Shown one piece after another: positions 2,241-58,486 of a DNA stretch of 64,000 nucleotides (the stretch's first letter is position 1; every line of letters starts with the position of its first letter). The stretch is taken from contig CAXXOU010000001.1 in assembly GCA_963677495.2 (NCBI GenBank), positions 480,001-544,000 on the forward strand. Reading direction: 5' to 3'. A program made the translations under genes and the position numbers. Origin of the DNA: Candidatus Cloacimonadales bacterium (GTDB taxonomy: Bacteria; Cloacimonadota; Cloacimonadia; Cloacimonadales; JAFGVF01). The notes beneath the pieces are model-generated. The model was not told the DNA's origin. It saw nothing but the letters and a program-made list of their open reading frames with translations, and did not search any database.

Positions 2241-2608
2241 TAGTTTCAATACTTGGTTTTATCCTCATTCTTATAGGCATCTGGGCTATGCTGACCAGAA
2301 AGAATATCATTAAAATTATTATTGGTTTTGCTATCGCTGATACAGGTGTAAATATCGTGATCGTGGCTTTGGGTTATCTTAAGAGTAAAACAGCTCCAAT
2401 AATTGATAGTGCTGTCAGTGGTAACAGTGGATTATCAGCAGGTGTAGAAGCTGTTGGTCAGGTTGTTGATCCAATCCCTAGTGCTTTAGTTCTTACTGCG
2501 ATTGTGATAGGATTAGCTGTTACAGCGTTGATGTTAGCGTATGCAGTAAGATTATACAAAGTTAGTGGAACCTTGGAAATCGATAAGTTTAAGGAGCAAA
2601 AATGGTAA
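2237..2608 (+). CDS. mnhC: Antiporter subunit C / NuoK-like (MbxG)
   Basis: NIIKIIIG and DPIPSALVLTAIVIG motifs. Confidence 0.93.
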   Translation: MIVSILGFILILIGIWAMLTRKNIIKIIIGFAIADTGVNIVIVALGYLKSKTAPIIDSAVSGNSGLSAGVEAVGQVVDPIPSALVLTAIVIGLAVTALMLAYAVRLYKVSGTLEIDKFKEQKW

Positions 2609-6662: not shown

Positions 6663-6670
6663 GAGTGATA

Positions 6671-7333
6671 ATGACTGATAAAGATAAAAAAGCTCCATTT
6701 AAAGACAATTGGACAGTTGACGATAAGACCTTGGCTAATGCTGATCTCCCTCAAGAGGAAAGAGATTGGTTTAGTGATGAGCGCCCACAACCCGTTAAAC
6801 CTGCATCATGGGGGCCGATGGAGAAGTTCCTTAACTGGGCAAGAGCAAATAGCCTTTGGTTACTTGCTTTTGGTACCGGTTGCGGAGCTGTAGAGCTTCG
6901 TCCTCTTCTCACTGCCAGATATGACATATCCCGACTTGGTATGGCTCCGAGACCTACACCAAGGCAATCATCAGTATTTATGATTGGTGGATATGTATCT
7001 ATTAAAACTCTTAAAAGGGTTATTAGAAGTTATGAACAGATGCAAGGTCCAAAGTTTGTAGTAGCAGTTTGTTCCTGTGCCATAAACGGAGGAATGTATT
7101 GGGATTCATATAACACAGTGAAGAGAATTGATCAATATATCCCTGTTGATGTATATGTTACAGGCTGTATGCCAAGACCTGAAGCTGTATTAGCGGGATT
7201 TGAGAAGCTTAAGAAGCTTATCATTGAAGGTAAAGCTGAAGGACAGAATCAATATGCTGAGAAGTTTGATTGGTATAAAGCTAATCAGAAACGTGTTATT
7301 AAAGACTGGAACATGCCAGATTACAACTGGTAG
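6671..7333 (+). CDS. nuoB: NuoB-like Fe-S subunit (MbxJ)
   Basis: FGTGCGAVE, CSCAINGG, IPVDVYVTGCMPRPE; ATG 6671 follows AGGAG. Confidence 0.93.
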   Translation: MTDKDKKAPFKDNWTVDDKTLANADLPQEERDWFSDERPQPVKPASWGPMEKFLNWARANSLWLLAFGTGCGAVELRPLLTARYDISRLGMAPRPTPRQSSVFMIGGYVSIKTLKRVIRSYEQMQGPKFVVAVCSCAINGGMYWDSYNTVKRIDQYIPVDVYVTGCMPRPEAVLAGFEKLKKLIIEGKAEGQNQYAEKFDWYKANQKRVIKDWNMPDYNW

Positions 7334-7339
7334 GTTAAT

Positions 7340-7864
7340 ATGCAAGCAATTATTGAAAAACTACAAAACCGATACAGCCTTTCAGATATTGTTGAGCAAA
7401 GGGCTAATCTTACCTTTGTAACAGTAAAGCAAACTGATGCTGTTTCCATTATAACACATCTTAGAGATATTGAAGGATTCACACATATTGTCCTGATGAC
7501 AGCTGTTGATAGGATTGAAGAGAATAAGTTCCAAATTACCTATCTTCTACATAATTATGATCTACATTCGGACTTAGGTATCAGAGTTCTGATAGACAGA
7601 GACAATCCCGAGATGGAATCCATACATCACCTTTGGAAACATACACGAGTTTTCCAACGCGAGCTACATGAGATGTTCGGAATCAACTTCCCCGGAAGCC
7701 CTGATGTAGATGTCCCAATGTTACTTGAAGGCTGGGATGGACCTCCCCCTATGAGAAGAGATTTTGATACTAAGAAGTATTCAGAAGAGAAGTTTGACCA
7801 CCGACCAAGAAACCATGTCGAACCTGAAAAGCAGTTCAGGCAAGAGATGTACCCGGAGGACTAA
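7340..7864 (+). CDS. nuoC: NuoC-like subunit (MbxK)
   Basis: QRELHEMFGINFPGSP...PPMRRDF motif. Confidence 0.92.
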   Translation: MQAIIEKLQNRYSLSDIVEQRANLTFVTVKQTDAVSIITHLRDIEGFTHIVLMTAVDRIEENKFQITYLLHNYDLHSDLGIRVLIDRDNPEMESIHHLWKHTRVFQRELHEMFGINFPGSPDVDVPMLLEGWDGPPPMRRDFDTKKYSEEKFDHRPRNHVEPEKQFRQEMYPED

Positions 7865-9021
7865 TGAAAGATTTATACCCACCAATTGTAGATGGTAAAT
7901 CCGTTTATGACTTAGATAGTCAGAAGTTTTTAAAGATGTGGCAAGGTCCACAACATCCGGGTGTAACAGGAAACATGAGCTTAGAGCTGGATATCAGTGG
8001 TGATCAGATAGTTAAGTGTACTACTCATGTTGGTTACCTGCATCGTGGTTTCGAGAAGCTGATGGAACGTAGACGCTATATTAACTGCTTCCCGATTGTA
8101 TGTCGGATATGTGTTCCGGAACCGGATACTAACGAATATCTCTTCGCAGCTGCAACAGAGGAGCTTCTGGGAATCGAGATTCCTGAAAAAGCTAAATGGC
8201 TTAGAACTCTTGATCTTGAACTTTCCAGATTAGTTAGTTTCCTCATGTGGATAGGTGGACAAAGTGGTTCATTTGGTTCAGGAACTGTATCCCAATGGGC
8301 TGTTGCTCATCGTGACTATGTACTTGATCTGTTTGAAGAATTATCAGGTGCCAGAATCTATCACATGTATATTATCCCAGGTGGTGTACGTGGTGACCTT
8401 CCAACGGGATGGATTGAGCATACAGAAGCTGTTCTACGTAAAGTAGAGAAGCTCCTCGATGAGATTCATTATGTTCTCTTTAACAATGCTGTCTTTAAAT
8501 CCAGAGCTGTTGGCTTGGGAGTTATCACACCGGATATGGTTGATAAATATGGTATAGTCGGACCTAATGCCAGAGGGAGTGGTGTCAAGCGAGATGTAAG
8601 AAAAGACACACCATATCTGGTTTATGATAAATTAGATTTTGATGTAATCACAGAAGATGGTGGTGATGCTTATGCCAGAGCATTAGTACGATGGCGCGAG
8701 ATGTATCAATCAATAGATTTGATAAGACAGATTCTTACTAAAATGCCTGTTGAGGGTGAAATATATACTACATTACCGAATGTTCTTCACCTTAAAGTAC
8801 CGGCAGGTGAAACCTATGTACGTGCTGAGTCCACACGTGGAGAGTATGGTTACTATATGGTTTCTGATGGCACAGCATTCCCTCGTAAGGTGACTGTTCG
8901 TGGTCCATCATATTCGCATGCAATGGCACTATTGGAAGATTTAGCAGTTGGTGGAAACATAGCTGACACTCACGGATTAATGATGTCACTTCACACATAC
9001 CCACCAGAGATAGAGAGGTAG
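7864..9021 (+). CDS. nuoD: NuoD-like catalytic subunit (MbxL/MbsL type, no complete NiFe ligand set)
   Basis: GPQHPG, GYLHRGFEK, RICVPEPD, ESTRGE; C-terminus SLHTYPPEIER. Confidence 0.92.
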   Translation: MKDLYPPIVDGKSVYDLDSQKFLKMWQGPQHPGVTGNMSLELDISGDQIVKCTTHVGYLHRGFEKLMERRRYINCFPIVCRICVPEPDTNEYLFAAATEELLGIEIPEKAKWLRTLDLELSRLVSFLMWIGGQSGSFGSGTVSQWAVAHRDYVLDLFEELSGARIYHMYIIPGGVRGDLPTGWIEHTEAVLRKVEKLLDEIHYVLFNNAVFKSRAVGLGVITPDMVDKYGIVGPNARGSGVKRDVRKDTPYLVYDKLDFDVITEDGGDAYARALVRWREMYQSIDLIRQILTKMPVEGEIYTTLPNVLHLKVPAGETYVRAESTRGEYGYYMVSDGTAFPRKVTVRGPSYSHAMALLEDLAVGGNIADTHGLMMSLHTYPPEIER

Positions 9022-9024
9022 ATT

Positions 9025-10827
9025 ATGAGTTTAAAAGATGTAATATCTCCATTATACGTTTGGAAAAGAGCTTTCGAAAAACCATATTCAATAAAAACAC
9101 TTAAAGAACCGAGACCCGGTGCTGACCGCTACAGGGGTTTTCATAAAAATGACTTAGAGAAATGTATTGGATGCGGTTCCTGCGCTGAGATATGTCAGAA
9201 TGTCTCAATCGAGATGCGTCCGGTTTCTGAGACCAAACATGGTGACAGTGGCTTACGACCTAAGATTGATTATGGTCGTTGTTGCTGGTGCGCGCTTTGT
9301 GTGGATATATGTCCTTCAGGCTCATTAACTATGTCTAATGAATATATCTGGGTTGAAGAGGGTTTGGATAAGGATACGAGAGAAACCTATTGCTATATCC
9401 CGGGAAAAGACAAAAAACCTTGGGATGATAATGAGCAAGGTTATCAAAGACCAAAAGGTTATGAACTAACCAATCTTAAGCGAGTAGAGATGGAACAACT
9501 TCCGGCTGAGGAACGTGTGAAATCTTTCATTGAGATGGTTAAAGGTTTCTCAAAAGAACAGGCTAAGAAGGAAGCTGATCGTTGTATCGAATGCGGTGTA
9601 TGTACTGCTACTTGTCCCGGCCATATGGATATTCCGGGTTACATTCGTGCAATTAGAGAGGATAACCTCGAAGAGGGTTTCAGGATTATCTACGAAACTA
9701 ATCCGTTACCCGGTGTTTGCGGACGTATCTGTACAAGAAAATGTGAAGAGGTTTGTTCGTTATCTCTTAGAGGAGAAGCAGTCTCTATCCGTTGGCTTAA
9801 ACGCTATATTATCGATAGTGTTGAATCCATTGAATACAAGGAAATACTTTCTGATACTGTTCAACCTACAGGTAAGAAGATAGCTATTGTGGGTGCAGGT
9901 CCCGGTGGGCTTAGTGCTGCATACTATCTCCTTAGGATGGGACATGAAGTGGAAATCTTCGAGAAAGACAACGGTGCAGGTGGTATGCTTCGATACGGTA
10001 TCCCTGAATATCGTTTACCGTATGAGATGCTTGATAAAGATATAAACTTTATCACAGAACTCGGGGCAAAGCTTAATCTTGGTGTTCAGGTCGGTAAAGA
10101 TGTCAGCTTCGATAAACTCTATAAAGAGAATGATGCTATCTTTGCCAGTATCGGACTCTCTGACTCATATAACATGGGGCTGGAAGGTGAAGACCTACCA
10201 GGTGTTACAACAGGCTTAGCTGTTCTTAGAGCTGTGACAGAAGGTAAAGACCCTGAGCTTGGAAACAATGTTGTTGTAATTGGTGGTGGTAATGTTGCCA
10301 TGGACGCAGCGCGTACTGCAAAGCATATGGGCTGTGATGTGACTGTTCTTTATAGAAGAAGACTGGAAGATATGCCGGCTGATAAGGAAGAAATACATGA
10401 AGCAATGGAAGAGGGAGTTGTCTTCCAATTCCAGGGAATCCCACTCAAGATAGAGCAAGCAGGCGATAAACTCGACTTCATCTGGGGTGAAGCTGAAATG
10501 GTTGATAAAGGTGACGGTAAACGTCCTTCTCCTGTTCTCATTGAGGGCAGTAGAAACGTTATCCACGCTACTAAAGTTGTTGCAGCTATCGGTCAGGAAG
10601 CTAACTACGAATGGCTTGATGGAGAAACAACGAAAGAGGTTAAGCTCGGAAAACGTAAGATCGAAGCTGACAGATGGGGTAAGACTGATGACCCTAAGAT
10701 TTATATTGGTGGAGATATGTTCAATCGTACTGCTGATGCCATCAGTGCTATCGCCGATGGACATCGCTCTGCTCGCGCTATCGATAGCTTCTTAAGTGGA
10801 GAAGAGTTCCCTAAGAATAGATTTTAA
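9025..10827 (+). CDS. NuoI-like 2x[4Fe-4S] domain fused to GltD/NfnB-like FAD/NADPH oxidoreductase (MbxN-GltD fusion)
   Basis: YRGFH, CIGCGSCAEIC, CCWCALCVDICP, then EADRCIEC..CP, CGRIC, GAGPGG (FAD), GGGNVAMD..LYRR (NADPH-type fold). Confidence 0.92.
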   Translation: MSLKDVISPLYVWKRAFEKPYSIKTLKEPRPGADRYRGFHKNDLEKCIGCGSCAEICQNVSIEMRPVSETKHGDSGLRPKIDYGRCCWCALCVDICPSGSLTMSNEYIWVEEGLDKDTRETYCYIPGKDKKPWDDNEQGYQRPKGYELTNLKRVEMEQLPAEERVKSFIEMVKGFSKEQAKKEADRCIECGVCTATCPGHMDIPGYIRAIREDNLEEGFRIIYETNPLPGVCGRICTRKCEEVCSLSLRGEAVSIRWLKRYIIDSVESIEYKEILSDTVQPTGKKIAIVGAGPGGLSAAYYLLRMGHEVEIFEKDNGAGGMLRYGIPEYRLPYEMLDKDINFITELGAKLNLGVQVGKDVSFDKLYKENDAIFASIGLSDSYNMGLEGEDLPGVTTGLAVLRAVTEGKDPELGNNVVVIGGGNVAMDAARTAKHMGCDVTVLYRRRLEDMPADKEEIHEAMEEGVVFQFQGIPLKIEQAGDKLDFIWGEAEMVDKGDGKRPSPVLIEGSRNVIHATKVVAAIGQEANYEWLDGETTKEVKLGKRKIEADRWGKTDDPKIYIGGDMFNRTADAISAIADGHRSARAIDSFLSGEEFPKNRF

Positions 10828-11373: not shown

Positions 11374-14169
11374 TTATCTTAGATATCTATCAACAAGACT
11401 TTTCCATGTTGTTCCAGTTGGGGCAATAGCAGCCTGAGATCTTACTGTCCCATATTGTCCTTCATAATCACGGATTGCGATTACTTGATAGAACATCTGG
11501 TCAGCAAACCAATCTACACCAGTGTGGACATGATTTAAGTTTGTTGTGACAGCTAAATGAAGATACTCACTTGGGGCGTCTGCAGGGTCATCACTGTAAT
11601 TGATTACATAGAAATCAATATCAACATGGATACCATGTTCAGTTTGAGTAATGCTGTCCCAACTTATCGTAGCATCTCCATCCGTAACTACAACGGCAAC
11701 ATTTGTCGGTGCCGGGATTGCATCATATTCAGAGCTACCTGATAAGTTAATCTCAATAACTGGATTATTTGTGGAGTTATTCACAATAAACAGAGTTCCA
11801 CTGTGGTTAGCCTCATTGCTTGGCTCAAAGTTCATAAATATCGAATTTGTAGTACCAGGAGCAATATCCCCACCAAGGTTGTCATAATTATGTGAAAATG
11901 CACCGGAGCTACCGTTCTCATAATATATATCAGTTATCATTAAGTCAACATTACCATCATTTTGCACAATGATTTCAGATGTGTCGTCCTGACCAAAGTA
12001 GAGTAAGCCAAAATCAATAGCTGATGATGTTGTAAGTGTTAAGGTCATTACAGGAGGACCAGGTTCCGTAACATAAATATCTCTTGATAAAGTTCTACCG
12101 GTAACATCACAATTATAAGTACCTATGTAATCACCGGAAACAGGGACATTCCAATCAAGCTGAGCTGTTGTCTCACCTGCGAAGTTCGGACTATCTAGGA
12201 CTGATCCATTTTTATACCATTGATAAGTTGTACCTGATAGATCAGAGTTGAATTTTACATCTCCTGTAAGATAGTTACTGTTGTGAAGGGCGACAGTTTG
12301 GTCAGACGTACCATCCATAATTGTTCTGCTATTACTCCAAGTACCGTCATTGCTGATATCACCTTTTATAATAACTTCAAGGAAGCTTCTTGTAGAGTAG
12401 TCGGCAATTGAACCATTATTTATTATATCACCATCAACTGTGAGAGAGTAGAACATCCATGACCTGTATGTATTACGCAAAGCTCCGGTAAGCACAGTTG
12501 TTCCGGTGAAGACATTGTTATCTCCGTTAATACGACATACACCCTGAAACTCAGCATTTTCAACGGTTGTATTCTGCATATAAGCATTATTAATCATGTT
12601 GATAACAGAGTCATTTGCTTCTATGAAAGCTTCATTTATATAGCCGTCATTGATTGTAAGTGTGTAGTCAGGTTGTAGAACCAAAGTGTTATTATTGAAA
12701 TTTATAGTTGAATTTACGAGTTCAACATCAGAATAGAAATAGACGTTACCTACTGATGCAGCAGCATTGAAGTATGCCTGCTGGAGAGGACTTGTACCAT
12801 TAACCGTAAAGAGTTGGTCGGTTCCTTGTAGTTCAACATTATGAACAGTCCAAGTACCATTATTGACTATCGTAATATCGTTAGGAAGATTAATCGAAAG
12901 GAGCTCGTTTCCTCTGTTGCTGATAGTACCGTTATTTATAATATCGCCATAAATAGTTGTAGTACAGTGGTCATATGTATTAAAACCACCATATAAAGCA
13001 CCAGTCACAGTAGTAGTGCCATTGAAAGTAACATCATCACCATTTATAAGGCAGGCACCATGAATATTTACATCATAGAAATCAATATTTCCAACTGTTG
13101 TACTATTTGTGAGATTAACTATAGCTCCACTTGAGTATATAGATCCGTTAGAGATAGAACCACTATCTAAATTAAGAGTAGTTCCTGAAGGAAGTAGTAT
13201 ATCATCTCCCTGAAGGTAGATGTTAGTATTGCTTAAGTTAATACCTGTATCAAAGATTAAATCATGACCATTGCCACTACAATACAATGAAGGTGTACTA
13301 ATGGGCTGTGTGCCTGAATAGATAAAATGTTGATCCATTGTACCTGTAAAATAAGTCCCACTACCGTTCCAACTACCGTTGTTAATAACTTCAACATCAC
13401 CCGGAATGTTGAATAATATTACTTCATTCCCTGAATTGCTGATCGTACCATTGTTGATGAATGTACCTGTTATGGAAGGTCTAACACTATCATAATAGTT
13501 ATTGCCTGGGGTGAGTGATCCGGTTATTGTAGTTGTACCAGAGAACAGGCTATTATCACCTTCAATTCTGCATGTACCTCTAAGTTCAAGGTCCTGAGCA
13601 TGGCATTCAGCTATTCGTGAAGAGTTTGTCATCTCTATTGCAGCTCCGTTACCACCAATTATATGAGCATGGTCAATTCCACTTTGATCGAAGAAAAGGT
13701 CATAACCGTTTGAAAGATCAAGTGTACCATTTTGCCAGTTTAAAGATGCACCACTGAAATAAAGGTCACTCATCGCTACGATATAAGAACCATTACTATT
13801 TACAATACCAGTTTCGATTGCGTTACCATTAGGGCATGAAATACTCTGTGCACCGGAACTCGTTAGATAGATTCCATTACAGTTCCAAACACCATAGTTA
13901 GTGACTGTACTGTTAGTATAAATATAGAGAGAGCCTCCGGAACTGTTCGTAATAATTGAACCTTCGTTTGTTACACTTCCATTAACTGTTAAAACTACAT
14001 AATCATTCCAGTTTAAGTTTGTAACTGTTGCTCCGGGATGGATATGTAAGTTTTCATCAATTGTTGTGTCAACTTCTAGTGCCCATGTTCCATAAATGTC
14101 TAAAGCTCCTAATGAAACAATAGCATTAAGAAGTAGTGCAATAAATACAAATATACATTTCGTTTTCAT
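11374..14169 (-). CDS. Secreted Asn/Gly/Thr-rich beta-solenoid-like protein with Ig-like/choice-of-anchor-D-like domain and FN3-like C-terminus
   Basis: Signal peptide MKTKCIFVFIALLLNAIVSLGA (start 14169, GGGGGA RBS); about three repeats of F.GTTT.TG.L...I.G.IINNG.I; IDFGLLY...IVQNDGNVDLMITDI. Confidence 0.75.
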   Translation of the reverse strand: MKTKCIFVFIALLLNAIVSLGALDIYGTWALEVDTTIDENLHIHPGATVTNLNWNDYVVLTVNGSVTNEGSIITNSSGGSLYIYTNSTVTNYGVWNCNGIYLTSSGAQSISCPNGNAIETGIVNSNGSYIVAMSDLYFSGASLNWQNGTLDLSNGYDLFFDQSGIDHAHIIGGNGAAIEMTNSSRIAECHAQDLELRGTCRIEGDNSLFSGTTTITGSLTPGNNYYDSVRPSITGTFINNGTISNSGNEVILFNIPGDVEVINNGSWNGSGTYFTGTMDQHFIYSGTQPISTPSLYCSGNGHDLIFDTGINLSNTNIYLQGDDILLPSGTTLNLDSGSISNGSIYSSGAIVNLTNSTTVGNIDFYDVNIHGACLINGDDVTFNGTTTVTGALYGGFNTYDHCTTTIYGDIINNGTISNRGNELLSINLPNDITIVNNGTWTVHNVELQGTDQLFTVNGTSPLQQAYFNAAASVGNVYFYSDVELVNSTINFNNNTLVLQPDYTLTINDGYINEAFIEANDSVINMINNAYMQNTTVENAEFQGVCRINGDNNVFTGTTVLTGALRNTYRSWMFYSLTVDGDIINNGSIADYSTRSFLEVIIKGDISNDGTWSNSRTIMDGTSDQTVALHNSNYLTGDVKFNSDLSGTTYQWYKNGSVLDSPNFAGETTAQLDWNVPVSGDYIGTYNCDVTGRTLSRDIYVTEPGPPVMTLTLTTSSAIDFGLLYFGQDDTSEIIVQNDGNVDLMITDIYYENGSSGAFSHNYDNLGGDIAPGTTNSIFMNFEPSNEANHSGTLFIVNNSTNNPVIEINLSGSSEYDAIPAPTNVAVVVTDGDATISWDSITQTEHGIHVDIDFYVINYSDDPADAPSEYLHLAVTTNLNHVHTGVDWFADQMFYQVIAIRDYEGQYGTVRSQAAIAPTGTTWKSLVDRYLR

Positions 14170-14372
14170 TATTCCCCCTTGCAGACTTAATTCCATTCTA
14201 TAAAGACTACCAACATCTATATGATTGTAATTCATTATTGTCAAAACAATTCTTGGAAGAAAGGTGCTTTAAAATCATGTGAAGGATTGAAGAATAGTAT
14301 TAAATCGCATTAATCTCTTGACGTCGAATTAGTTTAGTCACAATAAAGAGAAAACAAATGAAGTAGGGATGA

Positions 14373-15107
14373 ATGAAAGCATTACTAACTTTTATTGGGA
14401 ATCATGACCCTTTTGCAGATGGCAAAGCTCAGCTTGGTCCAATTCTGTCTATTCTTGAAAAGCGTAAGTTCGATAAGCTTTATCTGCTATTTAACAATGA
14501 TAGGTATTGGGATGCAGTGTTTAAAACTCAAGAGATATGTAATCAGAAGTATCCTCAGATGAAAGTGGAAATGCGACTAACTGAAGCAGTGAATCCTATC
14601 AATTATAACCTTGTTTATCCTGCTATGTATAATGTTGTGCAGAGAATTGTGAAAGAGAATAAAGGGATGAAATACACTATCTCAATCACTTCCGGTACCC
14701 CTACTATGCACTCCTGCTGGATACTGCTTGTGCAGGGAGGTGTGATAAATGCTGAGATTTTGCAAGTTTCCAGAGAAAACGGGATTGAAAAAGTAACATT
14801 TGATCTTGATGATTTCCCTAATATTGCTGAGACTCCCGAGACGAAGGTAGAACTTACCCGACTTGCCCGTGAAAATGCTGAACTAAAGAAGTTTCTTAAT
14901 CCGGAGTATAGTATTCATAATGGATTCTACATTCCACCTGAAGGGCTTAAGCTTGATAATGAGATTGTCCCCGCCTATTATATCGGTGCTTTGAAAGCAA
15001 CAAAAGGTAACGCAACCAAAGCTGCAAAGCTCTTAGGTTTGGAACCCCATACCCTCAGAAAACGGCTTCGTGGGCTCGGTATAAATATTGCAGACTATAA
15101 AGAATAG
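14373..15107 (+). CDS. RtcR/CARF-like N-terminal domain + Fis-type HTH regulator with no AAA+ domain
   Basis: ALLTFIGNHDPF, SITSGTPTMH (CARF/RtcR-like), ALKATKGNATKAAKLLGL..HTLRKRL (Fis HTH); no Walker A or GAFTGA. Confidence 0.7.
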   Translation: MKALLTFIGNHDPFADGKAQLGPILSILEKRKFDKLYLLFNNDRYWDAVFKTQEICNQKYPQMKVEMRLTEAVNPINYNLVYPAMYNVVQRIVKENKGMKYTISITSGTPTMHSCWILLVQGGVINAEILQVSRENGIEKVTFDLDDFPNIAETPETKVELTRLARENAELKKFLNPEYSIHNGFYIPPEGLKLDNEIVPAYYIGALKATKGNATKAAKLLGLEPHTLRKRLRGLGINIADYKE

Positions 15108-15311
15108 TAACGAATGTTACGGCAATATTGTATTAAAGAATTATTAATGAATATTGTAACAGATTGATAGATAAGTTTATAGAGTGATAAGGCAAAATTT
15201 GAGTGGACAGTTGTAAGAAAATAGATACAATCATTTCTGTAGTCAGATGAAGTTATCTTGATGAATGAGGGTAGCTATGAAACGAAACTCAGAATGATAT
15301 GTGAGGTTAGA

Positions 15312-17006
15312 ATGAATAAGAAAATAGATGATAGAAAATATGATAGGGTTGAGAAGAATGAAAATGATGTTGTTTCTGAGGCTGAAGCTTACTATAAGAG
15401 ATCTCAAGACAAGTCATTGTCTAATCCTGAACAAATTGAATTCCTGACTAAGGCAATTGAACTTGATGGAAACAATTTGAAATATATGCTTACAAGAGCT
15501 ATTACTTATAAAGATTCAAGTAACTTTGCTAAGGCATTGGATGACTTTGCGTCTATTTTACACACAGAAGAAGAGTCATGGGTAAGGGAACTTGCTCATG
15601 CCCAGAGAGTAACGATCTTCAAAGATAATCTGAAAGATTATAAAAATGCAGTCGTTGAGCTAACTAATGCTATTGAACTGGAACCTAATAAAGAGCGTGG
15701 TTATACACATAGAGCTGAGTTCTATCGAGATTTTGAAAAGAACTATAATAAGGCATTAACCGATTATGATAGAGCGATAGAACTATCCCCTGATGCTGCT
15801 GATTTATATTATACTAGAGGAAAGCTTTATGAAGAGAATCTCAATGATAAAGTTAATGCATTCAAGGATTATTGTAAAGCTATTGTTATTGATTCAGAAT
15901 GGGCAAGCACATGTATAGATTTTATGTACGAAAACTCAGAACTAATATCAATTATTGATAAAGAACAAGCATATATTTTTTGTAAACAAGTACAGAAAGC
16001 TATTAACTATTATGATGCTGATTTAACTTACAAGTTACTACCATTTCTACAGTTTCAGATAGAGTATCATGAAACAAAAAATGAGTTCAAGGAAGCAATA
16101 GATATTCTAACGTGTATAGAAGATGGCTACCATTTTGGTGAAGATTCAGGCTACTTCATTGATTGGACATGTGAATTGCAAGACAAACTTAGAGAGCAAG
16201 AAGTAGAGAAAGCCAAACTTGAAGAGAAAGATAGGATAATGTTTAATCTTTCTCACACAATTAAGAATATTTTAGGTACAATCATAGATCCCTTAAAGAA
16301 CATGAAGGCAGATAAGGAGTATGAAGAGGTTACTATTGATGATGCCTTACGAGGGACACAGATTATAAGAGGGATTGTGAATGCAATGAGTTTAGGATTC
16401 TCAGGTTCAATTGATGATTTCAAGTATGATGTTAAGAACTCAAATGAAAGTTCTAAATCTCTGTATGACTTGATACTTGACTCATTTAAATACTCTGTTG
16501 GTGCTATGTTCGATGATAAATACTTTGGTAAGTTTTCAGAAAACTACTTTGAAACCGATGAAGCATTATTCAAAGCAGAAGGAGAATGGAATCATACTTC
16601 TAATACAAACAACCTAAATAGATTAGTTGATTTTGTGAATAAGCATATGTTTGATATTGAGATAAATATAGATAGTGCGAAAGAATTAGTTTTAGGCGAT
16701 GATAAGGGGTCTGCTTTGAGGATGCTTATTATGTTTCAGGAAATAATTCTCAATGCAGTAAAATATGCATCACCAGTTAAAAGAGACAATAGAAAAGTGT
16801 TTATCAGTCTTATCCGTACAGATAAAAGTGTTGTCTTTGAGGTAAAGAATAGCTTTAAAGCTAAATCAAGAATGAAAACAACCGGATTAGGAAAAGAAAT
16901 AGTTAAGAACTTTGCTAAACTCTTAGAAACTGAACCTTGCATTAAGATGGATGATTATTATTACTCAGTAAAGATAGAGTTTAACAACTTCTGGAGGAAG
17001 AAATGA
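15312..17006 (+). CDS. TPR-repeat soluble histidine-kinase-like protein (degenerate HATPase)
   Basis: TPR repeats (KAIELD, NAIELEP, RAIELSP); H-box LSHTIKNIL; N-box EIILNAVKY; TGLG; ATG 15312 follows GAGGT (ORF track 15258). Confidence 0.72.
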   Translation: MNKKIDDRKYDRVEKNENDVVSEAEAYYKRSQDKSLSNPEQIEFLTKAIELDGNNLKYMLTRAITYKDSSNFAKALDDFASILHTEEESWVRELAHAQRVTIFKDNLKDYKNAVVELTNAIELEPNKERGYTHRAEFYRDFEKNYNKALTDYDRAIELSPDAADLYYTRGKLYEENLNDKVNAFKDYCKAIVIDSEWASTCIDFMYENSELISIIDKEQAYIFCKQVQKAINYYDADLTYKLLPFLQFQIEYHETKNEFKEAIDILTCIEDGYHFGEDSGYFIDWTCELQDKLREQEVEKAKLEEKDRIMFNLSHTIKNILGTIIDPLKNMKADKEYEEVTIDDALRGTQIIRGIVNAMSLGFSGSIDDFKYDVKNSNESSKSLYDLILDSFKYSVGAMFDDKYFGKFSENYFETDEALFKAEGEWNHTSNTNNLNRLVDFVNKHMFDIEINIDSAKELVLGDDKGSALRMLIMFQEIILNAVKYASPVKRDNRKVFISLIRTDKSVVFEVKNSFKAKSRMKTTGLGKEIVKNFAKLLETEPCIKMDDYYYSVKIEFNNFWRKK

Positions 17007-18004
17007 AGATACTCTATGTAGAAGATGAGCTGAAAGCAAATATCCCAAAGATTGAGAACTTGTTTAAGAAATTCCTATCAAAGCAAGATTTACAGCAATT
17101 ACGATACTTAAAAGCTCAAAGAAGAAAAACTAAGGAACAAATTAAGCAGATTGTTCAGAATTCAGGAAAAATAGATGTGGCATATACATTTCCAATGGCC
17201 TTAGGGTTACTTAGAAATTATCAGGTATATGACTTGTTTATAATTGATAGAAACTTATCTGATGAAGAATATGATTTTGAAGAGTTAACAAAAAATGACT
17301 CTAAATTCCAAGAGAAGCATTATGACCTTTTCTTTGAGAGGGAGGGTGATTACATTCTCAGCAAGCTGGTTTCTGAGAGCATAGTGGTAAGAGATAAAGT
17401 ATTCTTTCTAACAGCAAACTCAAATGATGAGCTTAAACGAACTGAGAGAATAGATTCTCTTCTTGATTTTGGACAATTTAGTAAAGCAAATATAATTGAT
17501 AAGACTGATGATGTAGAGATTGATAGATTAAAGCACTTAATTGAGAATAATGAAGAAATACGAATTAAAAAAGAGTTTGCTTTTGAAATAGAGATTTTGC
17601 GCACCATAAGTGAAAGAGCAGTTGAGTTATTCATAGAGATTATAAAGCGTAAAGAGGCAACAGATAGATCAAGTGTTGTAGAAAACCTATTAAAACTCCG
17701 CAAACTTAATGAAAATCTTCTAATAATAGTTGCTAAAAACTATATAAAAGAAAGAGGTGTTTTTAATGACTATGATGAAGTAAACATCGGTTCAGTAATC
17801 TATTGGCTTAAAAATAATGAGAAATTCAGACTAGATAGTAATGCACTAATAGTTAGTTATTTATATTGTATCAAAGCTCTTGGTAGTGAGTATGGCTCAC
17901 ATGAGAAATTAGAAGAGACAGTTCCGACTACATCTAACACTGTAAATGCATTGTTTTATGCACTTCTAGATATAATACGTTGGTTTAGTCAGTTAAAGAA
18001 TTAA
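17003..18004 (+). CDS. Atypical receiver (REC)-domain protein with helical C-terminal domain
   Basis: MKILYVEDE, YDLFIIDRNL, VFFLTAN receiver strands with long inserts; ATGA overlap with kinase stop. Confidence 0.62.
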   Translation: MKILYVEDELKANIPKIENLFKKFLSKQDLQQLRYLKAQRRKTKEQIKQIVQNSGKIDVAYTFPMALGLLRNYQVYDLFIIDRNLSDEEYDFEELTKNDSKFQEKHYDLFFEREGDYILSKLVSESIVVRDKVFFLTANSNDELKRTERIDSLLDFGQFSKANIIDKTDDVEIDRLKHLIENNEEIRIKKEFAFEIEILRTISERAVELFIEIIKRKEATDRSSVVENLLKLRKLNENLLIIVAKNYIKERGVFNDYDEVNIGSVIYWLKNNEKFRLDSNALIVSYLYCIKALGSEYGSHEKLEETVPTTSNTVNALFYALLDIIRWFSQLKN

Positions 18005-18108: not shown

Positions 18109-18243
18109 TAAGAGCATTAATGCTGATTAAGTCATTTCTTTGAAGGCTTCACAGAGTGTTATTTGCGAATAGTCGCAAACTACTCCTAATATCCTCCCAA
18201 AATCTTTACTTGACTATTAACAATAGGTTTAGAAAGTCGAATA

Positions 18244-19023
18244 ATGAATAAAAGTGCGATACTGGTAGTAGATATAGGAAACTCACATGTTGTGTTAGGA
18301 TGTTATATAGACGGGATTTTGACCGCTAATTGGCGGTTACATTCCGATCGGGAGAAAACATCTGATGAGTACTATTGTCAAATCCAGACCTTTTTTTCAA
18401 CATCAATCAAAGAGGAAGTATATATCGAGAAAGTTGCTATGTCATCGGTCGTACCAGAATTGACCAGAATTTTTACCCATTTAGTACAGCGGTATTTTGA
18501 TTGTCCGCTAATAAACGTAACCGGAGTTTTACCATTAGGATTGAGCTATAGCATAGCAGATCCGTCGTTCATAGGAGCAGATTTGATAGTAAATGCTTAT
18601 TCGGCCTGGAAGAAGTATAAAACCAACTGTATTGTTTGTGATTTGGGAACAGCCACAACAGTTCAGTTCATTGATAAAGATGGTCATTTCCACGGGACAG
18701 CAATATCCCCTGGAATCAGAAGTTCTGCCACAGGTCTATTTACAAAGGCTGCACTTCTCACTAATATCCAATTGGACAAACCGGAAAGTTTATTGGGCAC
18801 AAATACTAAAGAGGCTTTGTTGTCAGGAATAATTCGAGGACATATCTACATGATAGATGGGTTCACGAAAGCAATCAGGCAGCAATTTAAGCATCTGGGT
18901 GAAATCAAATGCATAGCGACAGGCGGTATATCCAGTCTGTTGGTTGGAGAGTCGGAAGAGTTGGACATTGTTGATAAACAATTGACGCTTGATGGCTTGT
19001 ATATGATTAGCCAGGCAATCTAA
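18244..19023 (+). CDS. coaX: Type III pantothenate kinase
   Basis: VVDIGNS, SSVVP, IGADL, VCDLGTATT, ATGG motifs. Confidence 0.95.
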   Translation: MNKSAILVVDIGNSHVVLGCYIDGILTANWRLHSDREKTSDEYYCQIQTFFSTSIKEEVYIEKVAMSSVVPELTRIFTHLVQRYFDCPLINVTGVLPLGLSYSIADPSFIGADLIVNAYSAWKKYKTNCIVCDLGTATTVQFIDKDGHFHGTAISPGIRSSATGLFTKAALLTNIQLDKPESLLGTNTKEALLSGIIRGHIYMIDGFTKAIRQQFKHLGEIKCIATGGISSLLVGESEELDIVDKQLTLDGLYMISQAI

Positions 19024-19058
19024 TCTGAAAGAGAGTTAGTAAACAAATAAGGCAACAA

Positions 19059-22000
19059 ATGTATAGAAAAAGCATTCTGATAGCAGTCTTAATCCTATTT
19101 TCAGCAACACTTATCGCTGATGTATTCCCTCCGGAAATAAGACTGAACGGTTATCCCAAGATTACAGGAAACAAAGTAACATTCTTCAATATACCCAAAA
19201 CACCGATATATTCATACGAAAAACCATACATAAACAATCTTCTAAAACCTGATACTCAAATCGAAATAGACTTCGATAAAATGAAGGTTGTGTATAAAAC
19301 AACATATCGTAACGTGGAAGTTCTACCTGATCTTTATGTTAGTTTTGACGGTTATTTCGCTGAGATCTTAAAAAATACACTTACTGAAAAGATAACTAAG
19401 AATTCAATTGATTTTATTATGTCAGAAGATCGCCAAGTTGATACAGGTATTATTCCAGAAATCACTATCAAAATACCTAAAGAAGCTATCCCCAAAGGTA
19501 TGCGTTCGTTTCTTGGTGATGAGCAAGGAAAACTGAATCTTGATGGTAGCCAAAAACTTACAGTTACCGGAACTAGCACTAAACGTGAGACAAATATTGT
19601 CTATGAAGGGAAAGATAACAGTAATTTTGACCTTGAGATGAAGCAAGAGCTAGACCTCAGACTGCGTGGTAAGATCGGTAAGAAGATCTCTGTTGACCTT
19701 AAGCATAATTCAAATACCGACGAGACCCTTTTTGACCCTAATAACATACACATTGAGTATGATGGTGATGATGATGAAATTGTGCAGAAGGTTGAAGCCG
19801 GTAATATCTCACTTTCTTTATCAGGATCAAAGTATGTTTCAACAAGTATCTCCTCTCAAGGACTGTTTGGTGTTAAAGGTGAAGTACAGGTAGGTGATCT
19901 GAAAGTACAAGCAATCTTCAGTGAAGAAGAGGGTGAGAAGAATAAGCAGAAATATACGGGTAATACTCAACAGGATTCAACAACAATTTATAGTAAGAAT
20001 TATGCGAATAGGACTCACTACTTTGTAGAGCCAATGCAACGATTGTTCCAGCTCTACACTCAAGCTGATGCTGATGCAGGAACCTGTCCGCCCGGTTGGG
20101 TTAATAATGCAATTAAGACTGATAACGGTGATTGGTTACTGACTGATGGTAATCTGTTACCTCAGCCAAACTCTTTAAAAGTTTTTCTTGATGACGGTAT
20201 TGCTACTAATAATGAAGCAAATACACGAGAGGGTGACCCAATTGTAAGTGAAGATGGTCAGATATATACTCCATTTTATGAAGAGCAAGTTGAAGGTGTC
20301 GATTACTTTGTTGATTATGACGCAGGTATGATTGTTTTCCTAAAATCTATTAACAAAATATACACTATTGGTGTCAGTTATACAGACGGATATGGGCAGT
20401 TAATTCCTGCAGATTTTGATTATACGAATCCTGATGAACCCTTACATTTGAAACTTCTTCGAATTCGTAATCAGATTTATACTGATGACCCTGATAATGA
20501 GTACTCACGTTGGACATATATGGGTATGAATATCTATGACTTAGGATTGAACAACATCAAGAGTGAAGGATTTGAATTAAAAGTTTATACAAAAAATGAA
20601 GATAACACTTGGAATGAAAGATTGCCAGACTCTTTAAGTGTTGCAGGTAAAGTTACTTATGTAGATTACCTAGGTTTGAGTACAAACGGTGATATTTATG
20701 TTGATGCAAATGATAAAACAATTGATTTATCATTAGGCTATATCTACTTTCCACTGATCAAACCATTTGCCCCATTAGGTGATATCAACATATATAAGAA
20801 AGACCAAGAATATGTTCAGTCAGATGACTATAGATTTAATATGTCAGTTAAAGGGAGTATTAGTAGAGAAAGAATTAATCTAAATCAAATCAACATACTT
20901 GAAGGCTCTGTAACCGTTAAGGTGAATGGGTCAACTCTATCTGAAGGAGTTGATTATATAGTTGATTATGACATGGGAGAAATCTCTTTCTTGAACTCAA
21001 AAGCTAAAGATCCTAATGCTGAAATTGATATAGAGTATGAGTTCCGTTCCGGTTTCTCAGTAGAACGTAAGACTATGGCTGGTCTAAGAGCTGATTTAGC
21101 TATAGGTGACGTCGGTAACATTGGGTCAACATTAGTATATAAGAGTGAGAAAGTTACTGATGAGCATCCTGAAATTGGTAACGAAAACTATAACATGGTT
21201 TTAGGTGATATTGATGCAAACATCAAATTCAAGCCGGAATTTATGACTAAAATGATCGATGCTATCCCACTTGTAAAAACTACTGCAGAATCTGAAATTA
21301 GTTTAAGTGGTGAAGCTGCTTTCTCATACATTGATGTATATGGTAACAATGACACGAAGGCTAAAGAAGCCTATATTGATGATATGGAATCAGTCATTGA
21401 ACCTTATCCATTAGGAGTAACAAGACAGGTATGGAATCCTGCCAGTAAGCCTGACAATACCGACCTTGAAAAATCGAAAATAAACTGGTTCAAGCAACAG
21501 AATATTGATATGGGTGATGTTTATGATCCTGACACACTTACTGAGGAAGAGGAAAATGACGAAGTCAATGTGATGGCTATCAAAATGACACCGACTGAGG
21601 AGCCTGTAAGACATTGGGGTGGTTTAATGCGTTACATTGGTAATGAGATAGATTTCTCTGAAATGAAATACATCCAAGTGTTACTTAAAGCTGAATCAGG
21701 TGAAGTTGGATTCCCATTATCCCAAGTAAGAATGCATATTGACATTGGTGATATTAGTGAGAACTTCTATACCTATGGCGAAGTAGATGGAATCCCAATT
21801 TTACACAGAGAAGATGGAGCAAACGGTGGGTCTCTTGACGGTGATTTAGAAGTAATCGAAGACGTAGGTCTTGACGGAATACCAAATGGGCAAGAAGGCG
21901 ATGATCCTAATGATGATTTCGATAGTACTGAAGACCATTTTGAATACCCTTTTATAAACGGAACAGAGGAAAATGGTATTCTCGATACCGAAGATATGAA

Positions 22001-25000
22001 TGATGACGGAATTGTAAATACTCTGGATAGATATTTCGAATATACAGTTGAAGATATAACCGACAACTCAACCTCAGAATACTTAGAGAATGATAATAAT
22101 GGTTGGAAGTTATTCCGTATCCCTATTGATGCTAGAACTATGGTAGCACAAGTAACAGAACCTGACCTTTCCAAGATTAAATATGCAAGAATCTGGTTCG
22201 AAATAAATGAGACTACTAAAGTGAACCTTGTTGAGTTTGAAATAGTTGGGAATAAATATCTCCAACGTCCAATTTATGAAGCATACTTAAATATTGATGA
22301 GCTTGAGCAATATGCTCCAGTAGACCCATTGTTGCTAGAACAAAATGATGAATACATGCAGATTGGCATCGCAGATAACCAGAAAGATAACCATTATACA
22401 TCACCTAAGGACACATATAAAGTAGAAAAAGGTACTCAGACCTTAGAGCAATCGTTGAAACTTACTGCTAACAATATCCAAGGAAACCATATCGGTCTCG
22501 TTAGGCATAAAGAAACTCAATCATCAAATTGGCTTTCATACAACAAGCTTAAGTATTGGGTTTACCCCGAAATGGATGAAGAGATCGCTTATAATGACCC
22601 AATATACATAGTGATGCGTGCCGGAGCAGACTCTCTAAACTACTATGAAATAAGATACGAGACAAAACCCAATCGTTACTTACCAACAATGGAACGCAAT
22701 AATTGGATGGAAGTTGAAGTAGATTTTAGTGAACTCACTAAACTTAAAGCTGATAGCCCTGACAATCCTGATACAACCTTCGTAACTAAAGGGGAGTTTA
22801 CTTATATCCGATATAAGAATCCGACCCTATCTGCGATTCAGGAAATTTCTTTAGGTATAATGGTTCCTGAAGGTAATCCACAGTTTACAGGTACTGTTTA
22901 TTATGATGACATTAGGGTTGCTGATCCCTATACTGAAATGGGATTTGCTTATAGTGTGGACTTGAGAACAAAGTTTGCTGACTTCCTTGACTTTACCATA
23001 GGCTATGAACAAAAATCTGAGAACTTCCGCAAGGAAATTGTACGTAATACACAACCGTCTTATGTTGCACAAACCAACTTCGATATGACCGGTAAAATGT
23101 ATCTACATAAGTTCCTACCTTATGATTGGGGTTATAATATTCCGGTGCAAGTGACAAGAGCCCAAAACTGGGGTATTCCACGCTTCAAGGCTAACTCTGA
23201 TATTTTGAGAAAGGATTTAGCAGATAAATATCTTGATAAAGAGGAGAATAAGAGTAAATCCTATACTGCAGAAATCAACTTCTCTAAGAATGCAAGTAAA
23301 CCTAAATGGTGGACTAAATATACTCTAGACTCAACAACCTTATCAGCAAGAGTCACTTACACTGAATCAAATACACCAACAGCCATTGACACCACTTTCA
23401 CTTACAATGGAACATACACATATAATTTAAGCATTCCACGTGAGAAAATTGGTGTGAAACTGTTTAAGAACTATTATTGGTATGTGATACCTCGTTCATT
23501 TGACAATTCAATAACATTAACAGCTGATGAACCTGAGCGTTATACTTGGGATAACAACGCTGGAGATTTCTTGCCGGCACTTAACTCAAGGGATACGAAG
23601 TATATTAATACATCCAATACTGTTAACTATGACTTATTCTCGGATTTATCTTCTACCTATAGATTAACAACTAAACGTGATTTAATCTATAAGAAGTACT
23701 ATCAGGATATCAATGTTGGAGAAGAAACAGAATATAAACAGACTATCGACGTCTCTTATAATCCAAACTATTTCCCTAATGTTTATACATTTTCAATTTC
23801 ACCTCAGGCAACTTTTAATGAGACCAGAAGACTTGTAAATGGTAACACGACTAATGATGCTGATAAGGAGTATGAATTTGAGAGACTTGGCAGTGTCAAA
23901 CGCAATACAAATGTTAACTTTACACTCAAAAACTCTGATATGTTCAGTTCATTGGCTAGAAAAATAGCACAGAAATCACCAAAGCAAGACAAGAATAATA
24001 AGTCAGATGAGCCCAAAGATGATTTAGAAGAAAAGAAAGGAATAAGCAAGGAATACGAAGGCTCATCATCTCTACCGAGGGATACTGGAAAAGATAATGG
24101 AGACTTCGCTAAGAGCTTCGAAGAGTTTAAAAAAGAACTTCAAGAACAAGTTGATGCAGGCAAAATACCTAAAGACAAAATGGCAGATAAGCTTGCTAAC
24201 TTTGAGAAGGAACAAAATAAGCAAGAAAGTTCAGGAAGAAAGGCTTATGATTACAACAAACCTCGAGATGATTATAAAGGTAATAAGTCAGGACGAGGAA
24301 GCAAAAATAATGAACCTAAAAACATCTTCACATATATCTCTAAGCTAAAGAATATCTCTGTTTCATTAGATAATAATTATCAGACAGATTATAACGACTT
24401 GCAACACAGGCCCAACTTCATGTACCAACTTGGTGTACCTGATATAGTTGAAAAAGATTCTTTGAATTCCATTAAGAATAAGAATATGTTCTCTGTTAAT
24501 ACAGGTATAGAGTTAACAAGAACTATTGATATATCCACCGGTTATTCTTATACATTTGAAACTACAGAAGCGAATAGTAGCTCTCAAAGAGAAGATGTTA
24601 CTTTCCCTGATATTAGTGTAAATATTAGCGAGTTCCAGAAGTGGTTTGGCATAGAACGTGTACTTACCAGTTCTAGACTTTCTAGTAGTTATTCCTATAC
24701 TGTGAAGAAAACCGGTGATTTTGAATGGGATAAACCTAACACTGTGACAAAAGAACTTTCACTTAATCCTCTCATTAACTGGAATGGTAACTGGCTTAAA
24801 AATATTAATACAACTGCCAGCTACGGCTTTACAAACAGTAAAACCACTACAGATCGTGGTTCATTCGAATCATTGAGTGAGCGTAATAGTAATAATTTCA
24901 ATGGTTCTATCTCATATTCATTCACAGCTGCTCGTGGTCTTAAGCTCCCATTCATGAAGAAAAGAATGCGACTTAAGAATGAACTTACATCCACTTTAAA

Positions 25001-28511: not shown

Positions 28512-28535
28512 TATAGCTCCTTTTGTTGAACAAAC

Positions 28536-28560
28536 GGGGCAGGAAGAAAATACCTGCCCC
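28536..28560 (-). terminator. Conserved intergenic hairpin, copy 1, weak U-tract
   Basis: GGGGCAGG-AAGAAAATA-CCTGCCCC; followed on minus strand by GTTTGTT. Confidence 0.6.
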
Positions 28561-28568
28561 ACACTTGC

Positions 28569-30992: not shown

Positions 30993-31016
30993 TATAGCTC
31001 CTTTTGTTGAACAAAC

Positions 31017-31041
31017 GGGGCAGGAAGAAAATACCTGCCCC
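31017..31041 (-). terminator. Conserved intergenic hairpin, copy 2, weak U-tract
   Basis: Identical to 28536-28560. Confidence 0.6.
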
Positions 31042-31049
31042 ACACTTGC

Positions 31050-33473: not shown

Positions 33474-33486
33474 AGTAACTCCATTA

Positions 33487-33519: not shown

Positions 33520-33527
33520 ACATCGTA

Positions 33528-56739: not shown

Positions 56740-56757
56740 AATCTTACCTTTTCTTTA

Positions 56758-58467: not shown

Positions 58468-58486
58468 ATTACATTCCTTTTATAAG

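Follow-up and report, generated by a model that had tools for sequence, protein, structure and literature searches.

Introduction

Response regulators are known to act through DNA-binding, enzymatic (e.g. GGDEF, methylesterase or PglZ) or protein-binding outputs, and HEPN nucleases are known to be gated by cyclic oligoadenylates, antitoxins or CRISPR RNA. The RtcR_PspF groups of CARF regulators are reportedly defined in the 2020 CARF census of Makarova et al., which may also describe their neighborhoods. For RtcR itself, the sigma54 activator of rtcBA, excerpts of the literature report tRNA fragments with cyclic phosphate ends as the signal. RtcR-like activators have been linked to restriction-modification systems (Makarova et al. 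2014, PMC4012209, in the part available), and the accessible text of PMC11090510 places RtcR-like genes ahead of HEPN-bearing CoCoNuT operons, for which a logic like that proposed below was put forward, with a feedback loop via cyclic-phosphate ends. Here we analyze a 64,000-nucleotide stretch from a Candidatus Cloacimonadales bacterium (assembly GCA_963677495.2, contig CAXXOU010000001.1, positions 480,001 to 544,000 of the forward strand; hereafter the window, numbered from its first nucleotide), in which a short RtcR-type regulator gene is followed by the genes for a TPR histidine kinase and for a response regulator whose C-terminal domain is predicted to adopt the HEPN fold.

Operons that encode a receiver protein together with a GHKL ATP-binding protein were predicted to be defensive in Escherichia coli by DefensePredictor (PMC13092281), the closest parallel that we met in print; in the parts of that study available, the legend of Fig. 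6F names TPR, HATPase and REC for predicted systems that it highlights, and supplement file 7 marks the cloned E. coli example as defensive = 0. Our literature search found no description of a receiver-HEPN fusion or of the three-gene set, subject to the contents of the 2020 CARF census and of DefensePredictor Fig. 6F. The term "REC-HEPN" returned no paper in a full-text literature search, and the available portion of the HEPN census has no receiver fusion among its listed architectures. The module is apparently an undescribed variant of known parts, namely two-component signaling, HEPN effectors and RtcR-type control.

Results

A linked set of three genes recurs in related genomes

We read the three genes, which are co-oriented and intact in the window (Table 1), as a horizontally spread signaling module in which a CARF regulator, a TPR kinase and an HEPN-fold response regulator would form a two-key stress or anti-phage switch, a reading that we favor with little more than even confidence. 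The three genes probably act together in stress or anti-phage defense, and, judged from sequence, a defense role and nuclease activity are both plausible.

The linkage was assessed in 36 loci (numbered L below) fetched from species-representative genomes. A kinase homologue lies directly 5′ of the response regulator gene in 33 of the 36, mostly overlapping it; among the three exceptions, two start at a contig edge, and L036 truly lacks the kinase. An RtcR-like regulator stands 5′ of the kinase in 17 of the 21 loci with room for one and adjoins the response regulator gene on the opposite strand in L038; it is absent in L015, L026, L032 and L044. The trio is linked far beyond chance, because it recurs in many genomes, and the co-occurrence elsewhere on which the original prediction had staked its proposal is thereby borne out. 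Across the relatives' loci, no fourth conserved gene was found 3′ of the trio or between its genes.

Some loci depart from this layout. A Leptospiraceae locus carries two kinase-regulator pairs in tandem and no CARF regulator (L032:6106-10596). At L026:936-5360 there is an extra 476-aa response regulator paralogue, and a 994-aa TPR protein upstream replaces the CARF regulator. In a Verrucomicrobiota locus (L044:1840-3474), a 544-aa ORF (open reading frame) with no Pfam match and a weak PADLOC match to pAgo (E 1.2e-11) sits directly 5′ of the kinase gene.

Searched with a profile of the response regulator's C-terminal domain, 1.84 billion representatives yielded 293 matches at E≤1e-3 (142 of them at ≤1e-10 and 36 at ≤1e-30), and in nearly all of the 293 the domain forms the C-terminus of a 290-375-aa protein. 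The collection includes a second subfamily of ~290-310 aa, in which a plain receiver (DD, D and K positions visible) is joined to the same C-terminal domain; this subfamily keeps the R-x3-E and S-x-x-G-x-H motifs, with the arginine invariant and the histidine nearly so. A metagenome scan with the plain-receiver protein P0173 gave 225 pattern matches, none of which was confirmed, and the genome search across the phylum found the long subfamily alone. In one 614-aa protein (P0182), ~400 residues of TPR repeats run straight into the HEPN-like domain, kinase and receiver parts both being absent, and the sensor type is therefore linked to the output type without a phosphorelay.

Within the phylum, the C-terminal domain turned up in 30 genomes out of 232, and the module in 7 of 41 genomes of relatives (G000 included) and in two of the four genomes of the genus; its reach extends over Cloacimonadota, Desulfobacterota, Fidelibacterota, spirochaetes and other phyla. 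In G001, a genome of the same genus, similarity to the window starts only at 18199, from coaX onward, and other genes stand before coaX. Flanking genes vary from locus to locus, and in some relatives mobile or selfish genes (IS200 transposase, PIN, HNH, RadC/JAB protein) lie between the regulator and the kinase. The module thus looks as if it spreads horizontally.

The response regulator couples an atypical receiver to a predicted HEPN fold

The predicted structure of the response regulator (pLDDT 88.1) comprises a (beta-alpha)5 receiver and a four-helix bundle. The large inserts that had been noted in the receiver correspond to additional helices behind strands 1 and 3, and the residues expected of an active receiver (E7, D8, D82, T137 and K167) are invariant in all 30 aligned homologues. 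Nonetheless, Pfam Response_reg gave no match at E≤1 to the window protein or to any of the 30, and the window protein matched nothing in Pfam, NCBIfam or PADLOC. Homologues number 139 at E≤1e-3; the 120 listed measure ~195-423 aa, lack any Pfam family and, if named at all, are called hypothetical, the exception being one JGI record named as YjgD/DUF1641 family. The ESM Atlas placed the protein in unnamed clusters, with the nearest named one (iREC/Response_reg) at 0.85, a lead only.

The model folds residues 200-333 into an up-and-down bundle of four helices, helices 2 and 3 being separated by an insert. Nine of 13 VIA-align rows for this domain are HEPN proteins of different families, the best covering 117 of 126 residues at rmsd 2.5, and Foldseek assigned probabilities of 0.99 and 0.98 to two HEPN domains; the best whole-chain Foldseek row is Csm6 (6tug, E 0.012). 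Four residues of the domain (R233, G298, H300 and W327) are invariant across the 30 homologues, an acidic residue four positions after R233 is mostly conserved, and the family consensus around H300 is S-[DE]-[FY]-G-x-H. The parts of PMC3710099 available place the Rx4-6H motif where helix 3 ends and the loop leading to helix 4 begins, describe a conserved helix-2 residue beside the HEPN motif, and note that some families (Parep1/8) keep the histidine without the arginine. By comparison with that description, H300 of the model occupies exactly the site of the canonical motif histidine. We infer that the tail is an HEPN fold with a rearranged candidate active site, in which the arginine would have been relocated to helix 2.

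The original prediction had likened this tail to HEPN/DUF4145-type folds. The HEPN part of that likeness stands on the structural comparisons, but no specific tie to DUF4145 emerged. The histidine of its "GSEYGSH" segment is H300, and the invariance of that residue bears out the attention it had been given. An ordinary DNA-binding output, which would have spoken against the proposal, does not fit, as the structural matches are to HEPN proteins. A histidine phosphotransfer (HPt) domain was also considered for a histidine-containing bundle and rejected, since the histidine lies in the loop after helix 3 rather than on a helix face and the structural matches are to HEPN proteins.

The kinase is a divergent TPR-sensor histidine kinase

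The product of gene 2 is a cytoplasmic histidine kinase with a TPR sensor and belongs to a divergent family. The kinase had been described from the sequence as soluble and TPR-fronted, with H- and N-boxes and no G1 box, and both Pfam, through its TPR match, and the family alignments agree. Its start is likely ATG 15312, with a GAGG 8 nt 5′ of that codon, and its stop (TGA) overlaps the start (ATG) of the response regulator gene as ATGA, in keeping with the translational coupling that had been proposed.

Pfam returned only a weak GHKL match for the kinase (HATPase_c_5, E 0.008) and no HisKA match; in 25 related kinases, TPR repeats were detected in 16 and HATPase_c_5 in five. Over their C-terminal 255-271 residues the kinases align well, both in alignment A3 (33 sequences) and in a second one of 40. 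The histidine of "LSHxIKN" is invariant in A3 and sits on the first long helix of the model, in the position of the dimerization and histidine phosphotransfer (DHp) domain. In A3 numbering N188, K191 and G234 are invariant, G232 is nearly so, and the asparagine, lysine and tyrosine of the N-box do not vary. The DxGxG motif occurs in none of the 40 aligned kinases; the corresponding segment holds an invariant asparagine ("ENrY", with "KNSF" in the window).

The AlphaFold model of the kinase (pLDDT 81.9) gave 222 matches in the PDB (Protein Data Bank) at E≤1e-3 in Foldseek. CpxA, HK853, ZraS and DivL match it at E ~3e-6 to 1.5e-5 with probability 1.00, and BCKDK/PDK are also among the top matches (top E ~2e-6 to 1e-5), a likeness due to an extra helical segment between the histidine helix and the ATP-binding domain. 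By sequence the kinship is far less visible: a profile of the kinase C-terminus against PDB sequences found the CheA G2 region alone (E 0.9), and the three proteins of the module compared with PDB chains gave TPR, Fis-HTH and chance matches and nothing else.

The regulator is a short form of a sigma54 activator

The CARF-like helix-turn-helix (HTH) regulator that had been proposed for gene 1 proved to be an RtcR-type CARF domain joined to a Fis-type HTH, by both Pfam and PADLOC; what the proposal had missed is its origin as a shortened sigma54 activator. The protein matches Pfam RtcR at E 1.6e-9 (37.9 bits against a cut-off of 23.1), and in PADLOC it scores best with RtcR_PspF2 CARF_AAA_HTH (E 1.6e-30), a match confined to the CARF part. 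In NCBIfam, cas_csm6 (E 1.1e-11) and RtcR were matched, both far below their cut-offs. The gene is single-copy in its genome.

All 14 full-length relatives scanned carry Sigma54_activat and AAA_lid_14, most carry HTH_8, and eight give a Pfam CARF-type match at 1e-4. The sigma54-interaction AAA+ domain present in these 14 is absent from the window regulator and from those of L017 and L022, and alignment A2 shows the window protein to be ~240 aa shorter than relatives of 486-503 aa through a clean loss of the whole sigma54 AAA+ module. Because the same boundaries recur in L017 (64% identity) and L022 (58%), compared with 47-52% identity for the full-length forms, the window regulator is, on the sequence evidence, a short variant that has been conserved, rather than an isolated truncation. 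Lacking the AAA+ domain, it is therefore no sigma54 activator. The short form is not forced by a missing sigma54, since the genome encodes rpoN and nine other sigma54 activators (enhancer-binding proteins). In this 99.5%-complete genome neither RtcB (PF01139) nor Cas10 (Csm1 or Cmr2) was matched, and the regulator has a kinase and a response regulator as neighbors, with no rtcB/rtcA linkage.

The regions before the kinase gene were also compared. A strict sigma54-type element (TGGCA[CT]-N5-[CT]TGC), for which our own arithmetic puts the chance expectation far below one in the sequence scanned, was found in 7 of 17 such regions (L011, L019, L025, L030, L031, L037 and L043) and looser forms in four more (L020, L021, L039 and L042); none was found in the four short-regulator loci (window, L017, L022 and L024), nor in L014 or L016. 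In the window, the sigma70-like candidate of Table 1 is not above chance (13 such sites in the region against 16.6 expected).

The palindrome GTAACGAATGTTAC, which overlaps the stop codon of the CARF-HTH gene ~200 nt 5′ of the kinase start, is the sole GTAAC-N3-5-GTTAC in the window. Sites of the form GTAAC-N3-4-GTTAC number five in 398 kb scanned against ~1.1 expected, all in short-regulator loci (outside the window, L022:3275 and L024:4526, 4672 and 8043), a weak statistic given the few sites, the kindred loci and the position of some L024 copies inside repeats that flank an IS200 element. As a lead only, the palindrome is a candidate operator for the HTH. At L024:3088-4514 (Cloacimonadota), two ORFs of 118 and 124 aa make up a split short CARF-HTH gene, and an IS200-type Y1 transposase gene, flanked by a duplicated ~90-nt hairpin block, lies between the short regulator and kinase genes.

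Table 1. Features of the three-gene module and of the gene downstream. Numbers are window positions unless residues (aa) are given.
Feature	Position	Strand	Basis or remark
Short RtcR-type regulator gene (gene 1)	14373..15107	+	244-aa ORF
CARF domain	gene 1, ~aa 1-170		Pfam RtcR and PADLOC RtcR_PspF2
Coiled linker LTRLARENAELK	gene 1, between CARF and HTH		Conserved among related regulators
Fis-type HTH	gene 1, ~aa 200-240		Pfam HTH_8, E 1.5e-7
Palindrome GTAACGAATGTTAC, candidate operator	15107..15120	.	Overlaps CARF-HTH stop codon
Sigma70-like promoter candidate, TGGACA-16-TACAAT	15204..15231	+	Consensus scan, before kinase gene
Soluble TPR histidine kinase gene (gene 2)	15258..17006	+	582 aa at most
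TPR repeats	~15390-15912	+	Pfam TPR_11, E 1.6e-10
H-box His	16254-16256	+	"LSHxIKN", invariant in alignments
N-box Asn codon	starts 16752	+	"QExIxNAvKYs"
"VFEVKNSF" segment in place of G1	16833-16856	+	
G2-like "TTGLGK"	16878-16895	+	Family "SGxG"
Response regulator gene, receiver and predicted HEPN fold (gene 3)	17003..18004	+	333-aa ORF
REC domain with two helical inserts	17003..17554	+	Model and alignment
E7/D8	17021-17026	+	Acidic pair, end of strand 1
Phospho-acceptor D82	17246-17248	+	End of strand 3
T137	17411-17413	+	End of strand 4
K167	17501-17503	+	End of strand 5
HEPN-fold output domain (aa 200-333)	17600..18004	+	Predicted structure
R233	17699-17701	+	Helix 2, invariant
H300 of motif S295-x-x-G298-x-H300	17900-17902	+	End of helix 3
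W327	gene 3, aa 327		Helix 4, invariant
coaX	18244-19023		Pfam Pan_kinase, E 1.3e-54

The module in its surroundings

The three genes had been described as co-oriented and AT-rich upstream of coaX. The orientation holds, and the kinase and response regulator genes are indeed AT-rich, with GC contents of 0.325 and 0.308 where the window has 0.373 and coaX 0.399, but the CARF gene, at 0.395, is unremarkable for the window. The response regulator gene is separated from coaX by a spacer of 239 nt, and a repeat finder applied to the two intergenic regions of the window found nothing convincing. A search for sequencing runs that contain this DNA found four of DNA type, from one study, and none of RNA.

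The module is flanked by a secreted-protein gene and coaX, and the rest of the window holds genes for an Mrp/MBH-type membrane complex, secreted proteins, a large SprA-sized ORF and type IV pilus genes; the surroundings are housekeeping, with no defense island. At 219-10827, co-oriented genes encode Mrp/MBH-type antiporter-like and NuoB/C/D/H-like subunits and a 600-aa Fe-S/FAD oxidoreductase, which looks like a membrane-bound hydrogenase or Rnf-like energy-converting complex. Many very large secreted proteins with FlgD_ig or Por_Secre_tail C-termini, type IX secretion cargo, are encoded at 11374-14244, 26097-42356 and 50037-55019, two of them near-paralogues of 821 and 823 aa. A 2053-aa ORF right after coaX (19059-25220) has no Pfam match at 1e-5, and its synteny with coaX is kept in G001 (76.6% DNA identity over 18199-21883); from its size and context we take it to be, presumably, an SprA-like type IX secretion component. 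On the minus strand, 55486-63943 carries type IV pilus or type II secretion genes (PilC-like T2SSF, T2SSE ATPase, secretin and PilO-like), with a 1020-aa Big_1/invasin-like protein among them.

Defense genes near related loci

The flanks of related loci are modestly enriched in defense-like genes. At E≤1e-8, PADLOC models matched 27 of 184 flank ORFs of relatives and, among the control ORFs, 8 of 124 (odds ratio 2.5; p 0.028 by Fisher's test; control from ten arbitrary 15-kb regions of G000, with one RtcR fragment excluded from the flanks as part of the module), figures to be read with the one-genome control, the kindred loci and the nature of the matches in mind, which are single-profile matches and no system calls, several of them generic (helicases, ATPases, methyltransferases). 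Once generic classes (mad2, mad3, pVip, TPR, NYN and DEDDh) were dropped from both sets, the counts were 19 of 184 and 4 of 124 (p 0.026). More specific neighbors include an AbiEi/AbiEii pair (L016), HsdR (L030 and L039), HEC-01A (L028) and PDC-M51A with an AriA/GajA-like ATPase (L026), as well as ZorD/DpdE-like helicases (L017 and L020), PDC-S11 with PD-Lambda-2_B (L039), WYL (L043) and an NsnB-like ATPase (L044). The defense-island enrichment anticipated for the module was therefore met with in the flanks of its relatives, but the window copy itself lies outside any defense island.

Together with those limits on the enrichment, a series of observations weighs against a defense module with an HEPN effector. 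In the window, the immediate neighbors of the module have no PADLOC match, and the nearest defense-like genes, at 44415-47142, are 26 kb away. Of the three proteins, the CARF regulator alone matches PADLOC 2.0, the kinase and response regulator matching no family at E≤1, and on viral contigs scanned with the family alignment none of 35 pattern matches was confirmed. Six of the 14 full-length regulators lack a Pfam CARF match at 1e-4, two of these being N-terminally short ORF calls. ATP binding by the kinase is not assured, because the G1 aspartate is absent. In the output domain the arginine of the Rx4-6H motif is missing, positions −4 to −6 from H300 being G, S and E; hhalign gave a probability of 0.4% against a HepT/DUF86 alignment, and only one of 30 family members matches any Pfam HEPN family, weakly (HEPN_AbiU2, E 0.0079).

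The genes at 44415-47142 encode a 202-aa SAM methyltransferase that overlaps a 709-aa ResIII/DEAD helicase; PADLOC calls them mad2-like (E 3.4e-15) and mREase_IV-like (E 2.4e-42), and they may constitute a restriction-type defense locus.

Discussion

Proposed mechanism and alternatives

The signaling module that we favor would work in two steps of control. By analogy with RtcR, the CARF domain would bind a nucleotide or RNA-end ligand and so set transcription of the kinase-response regulator pair, while the TPR kinase would sense a second cue and phosphorylate D82. The phosphorylated receiver is expected to dimerize and bring two HEPN-like domains together, and the paired domains may then cleave or sequester RNA, with growth arrest or abortive infection as the outcome.

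A bolder version of this scheme, which we regard as possible but hold only tentatively, makes the output a phosphorylation-gated HEPN ribonuclease with a rearranged site behind a CARF sensor: RNA damage (e.g. RNA ends with 2′,3′-cyclic phosphate) would prime transcription, the cue sensed by the TPR kinase would fire the nuclease, and the whole would be a new anti-phage class. Since HEPN cleavage in turn generates cyclic-phosphate ends, the loop would be a feed-forward one leading to abortive infection.

A shade less likely than the gated ribonuclease, and the likeliest of the competing explanations, is an ordinary two-component system whose non-catalytic HEPN-fold output binds RNA or a partner protein and so adjusts gene expression under some stress, along the lines proposed for inactive HEPN domains like MtlR, with no role in defense. 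The incomplete Rx4-6H motif of the tail fits such a system, and PMC3710099, in the parts available, describes inactive regulatory HEPN domains as well as nucleotide-binding ones; the housekeeping neighbors of the window copy, an enrichment of ~2.5-fold over a one-genome control and the lack of a confirmed relative on the viral contigs scanned all point the same way. The conservation pattern does not: across all 30 homologues neither R233 nor H300 varies, and in the plain-receiver subfamily the arginine is likewise invariant and the histidine nearly so, which is more typical of catalytic residues than of a surface for binding. The patchy, horizontal-looking distribution and the mobile insertions (IS200, PIN, HNH) also fit conflict systems better than core regulation.

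That the C-terminal domain is a generic four-helix bundle with no HEPN ancestry, serving dimerization or partner-switching and resembling a nuclease by coincidence, we consider improbable. In profile comparisons (hhalign with HepT/DUF86, Pfam for 30 members) no link to an HEPN family emerged beyond the one weak HEPN_AbiU2 match, the Foldseek E-value is weak (0.012 at best, for the whole protein) and VIA-align itself warns about helical bundles; coincidence would nevertheless have to explain nine HEPN rows out of 13 in VIA-align, Foldseek probabilities of 0.98-0.99 and an invariant histidine at the canonical motif position. Least probable is that the window copy is a decaying remnant, its operon silenced by loss of the AAA+ module and the sigma54 promoter, for although the regulator is short by ~240 aa, no sigma54-type promoter is present, the sigma70-like site is not above chance and the kinase and response regulator genes are more AT-rich than their surroundings, the three ORFs are intact with the conserved residues of kinase and response regulator all present, the short form is kept in L017 and L022 at 58-64% identity, implying selection, and the palindrome is specific to short-form loci in the expected operator region.

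Significance

Should the output domain be an RNase, a His-Asp phosphorelay would join the known ways of gating HEPN nucleases, in a small set of three genes where mutants of kinase, receiver and nuclease would allow clean tests; if the gated-ribonuclease reading is true, this would be the first two-component system with an HEPN ribonuclease as its response regulator. The long and short forms of the CARF regulator, for their part, amount to a natural experiment in which an operon has been switched from sigma54 activation to other control.

Comparison with known systems

As a two-component system the module resembles the classical pairs (HK853-RR468, CpxA) in its DHp and GHKL folds, its conserved histidine, its full set of receiver residues and its coupled genes. 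It differs in that the kinase lacks DxGxG and has an extra helical segment, and the output is HEPN-like rather than any known output domain. The operons predicted by DefensePredictor likewise combine a receiver-domain protein and a HATPase_c_5-type ATPase into a candidate defense unit, but in the accessible parts of that work the proteins involved differ from those of the window and exceed them in size (543-615 aa and ~985 aa), and a CARF regulator is nowhere mentioned.

Among systems with HEPN domains, the HEPN-T and MNT-associated proteins (AF_0298, 2hsb; TT1696, 1ufb; ST0689, 1wol; sacsin HEPN) and Parep1/8 show no detectable sequence similarity to the window domain, which has no nucleotidyltransferase partner; across its family the domain follows a receiver or, in a single protein, TPR repeats. 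CASK (Csx33 with Csx34; bioRxiv 10.64898/2026.08.25.746378, in the part available) also joins kinase signaling to HEPN RNA cleavage and has TPR repeats on its kinase; that kinase, however, is a Ser/Thr kinase with a DNA-binding activator as its substrate, and the HEPN nuclease (Cas13) acts upstream of it, so the likeness is one of analogy only. Csm6/Csx1 place a CARF sensor and an HEPN-fold effector in one functional unit, as the window module appears to do. In the window, however, the CARF and HEPN-like domains are on separate proteins with a kinase-receiver step between them, the tail lacks the arginine of Rx4-6H, and the genome has no Cas10 match.

The closest comparison is with RtcR and the operons that RtcR-like genes precede. 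The window regulator shares with RtcR the CARF type, the Fis-type HTH and the co-oriented 5′ position, and its relatives have the sigma54 AAA+ module and a downstream sigma54-type promoter as well; it differs in lacking the AAA+ domain itself and in its presumed targets, a two-component pair rather than RNA-repair enzymes or McrBC-type nucleases. With CoCoNuT, as far as the available text of PMC11090510 describes it, the window module has in common an RtcR-like gene placed before an HEPN-bearing operon, and, if the output domain is an RNase, it would be a second case, besides CoCoNuT, of an RtcR-type sensor standing before an RNA-targeting effector.

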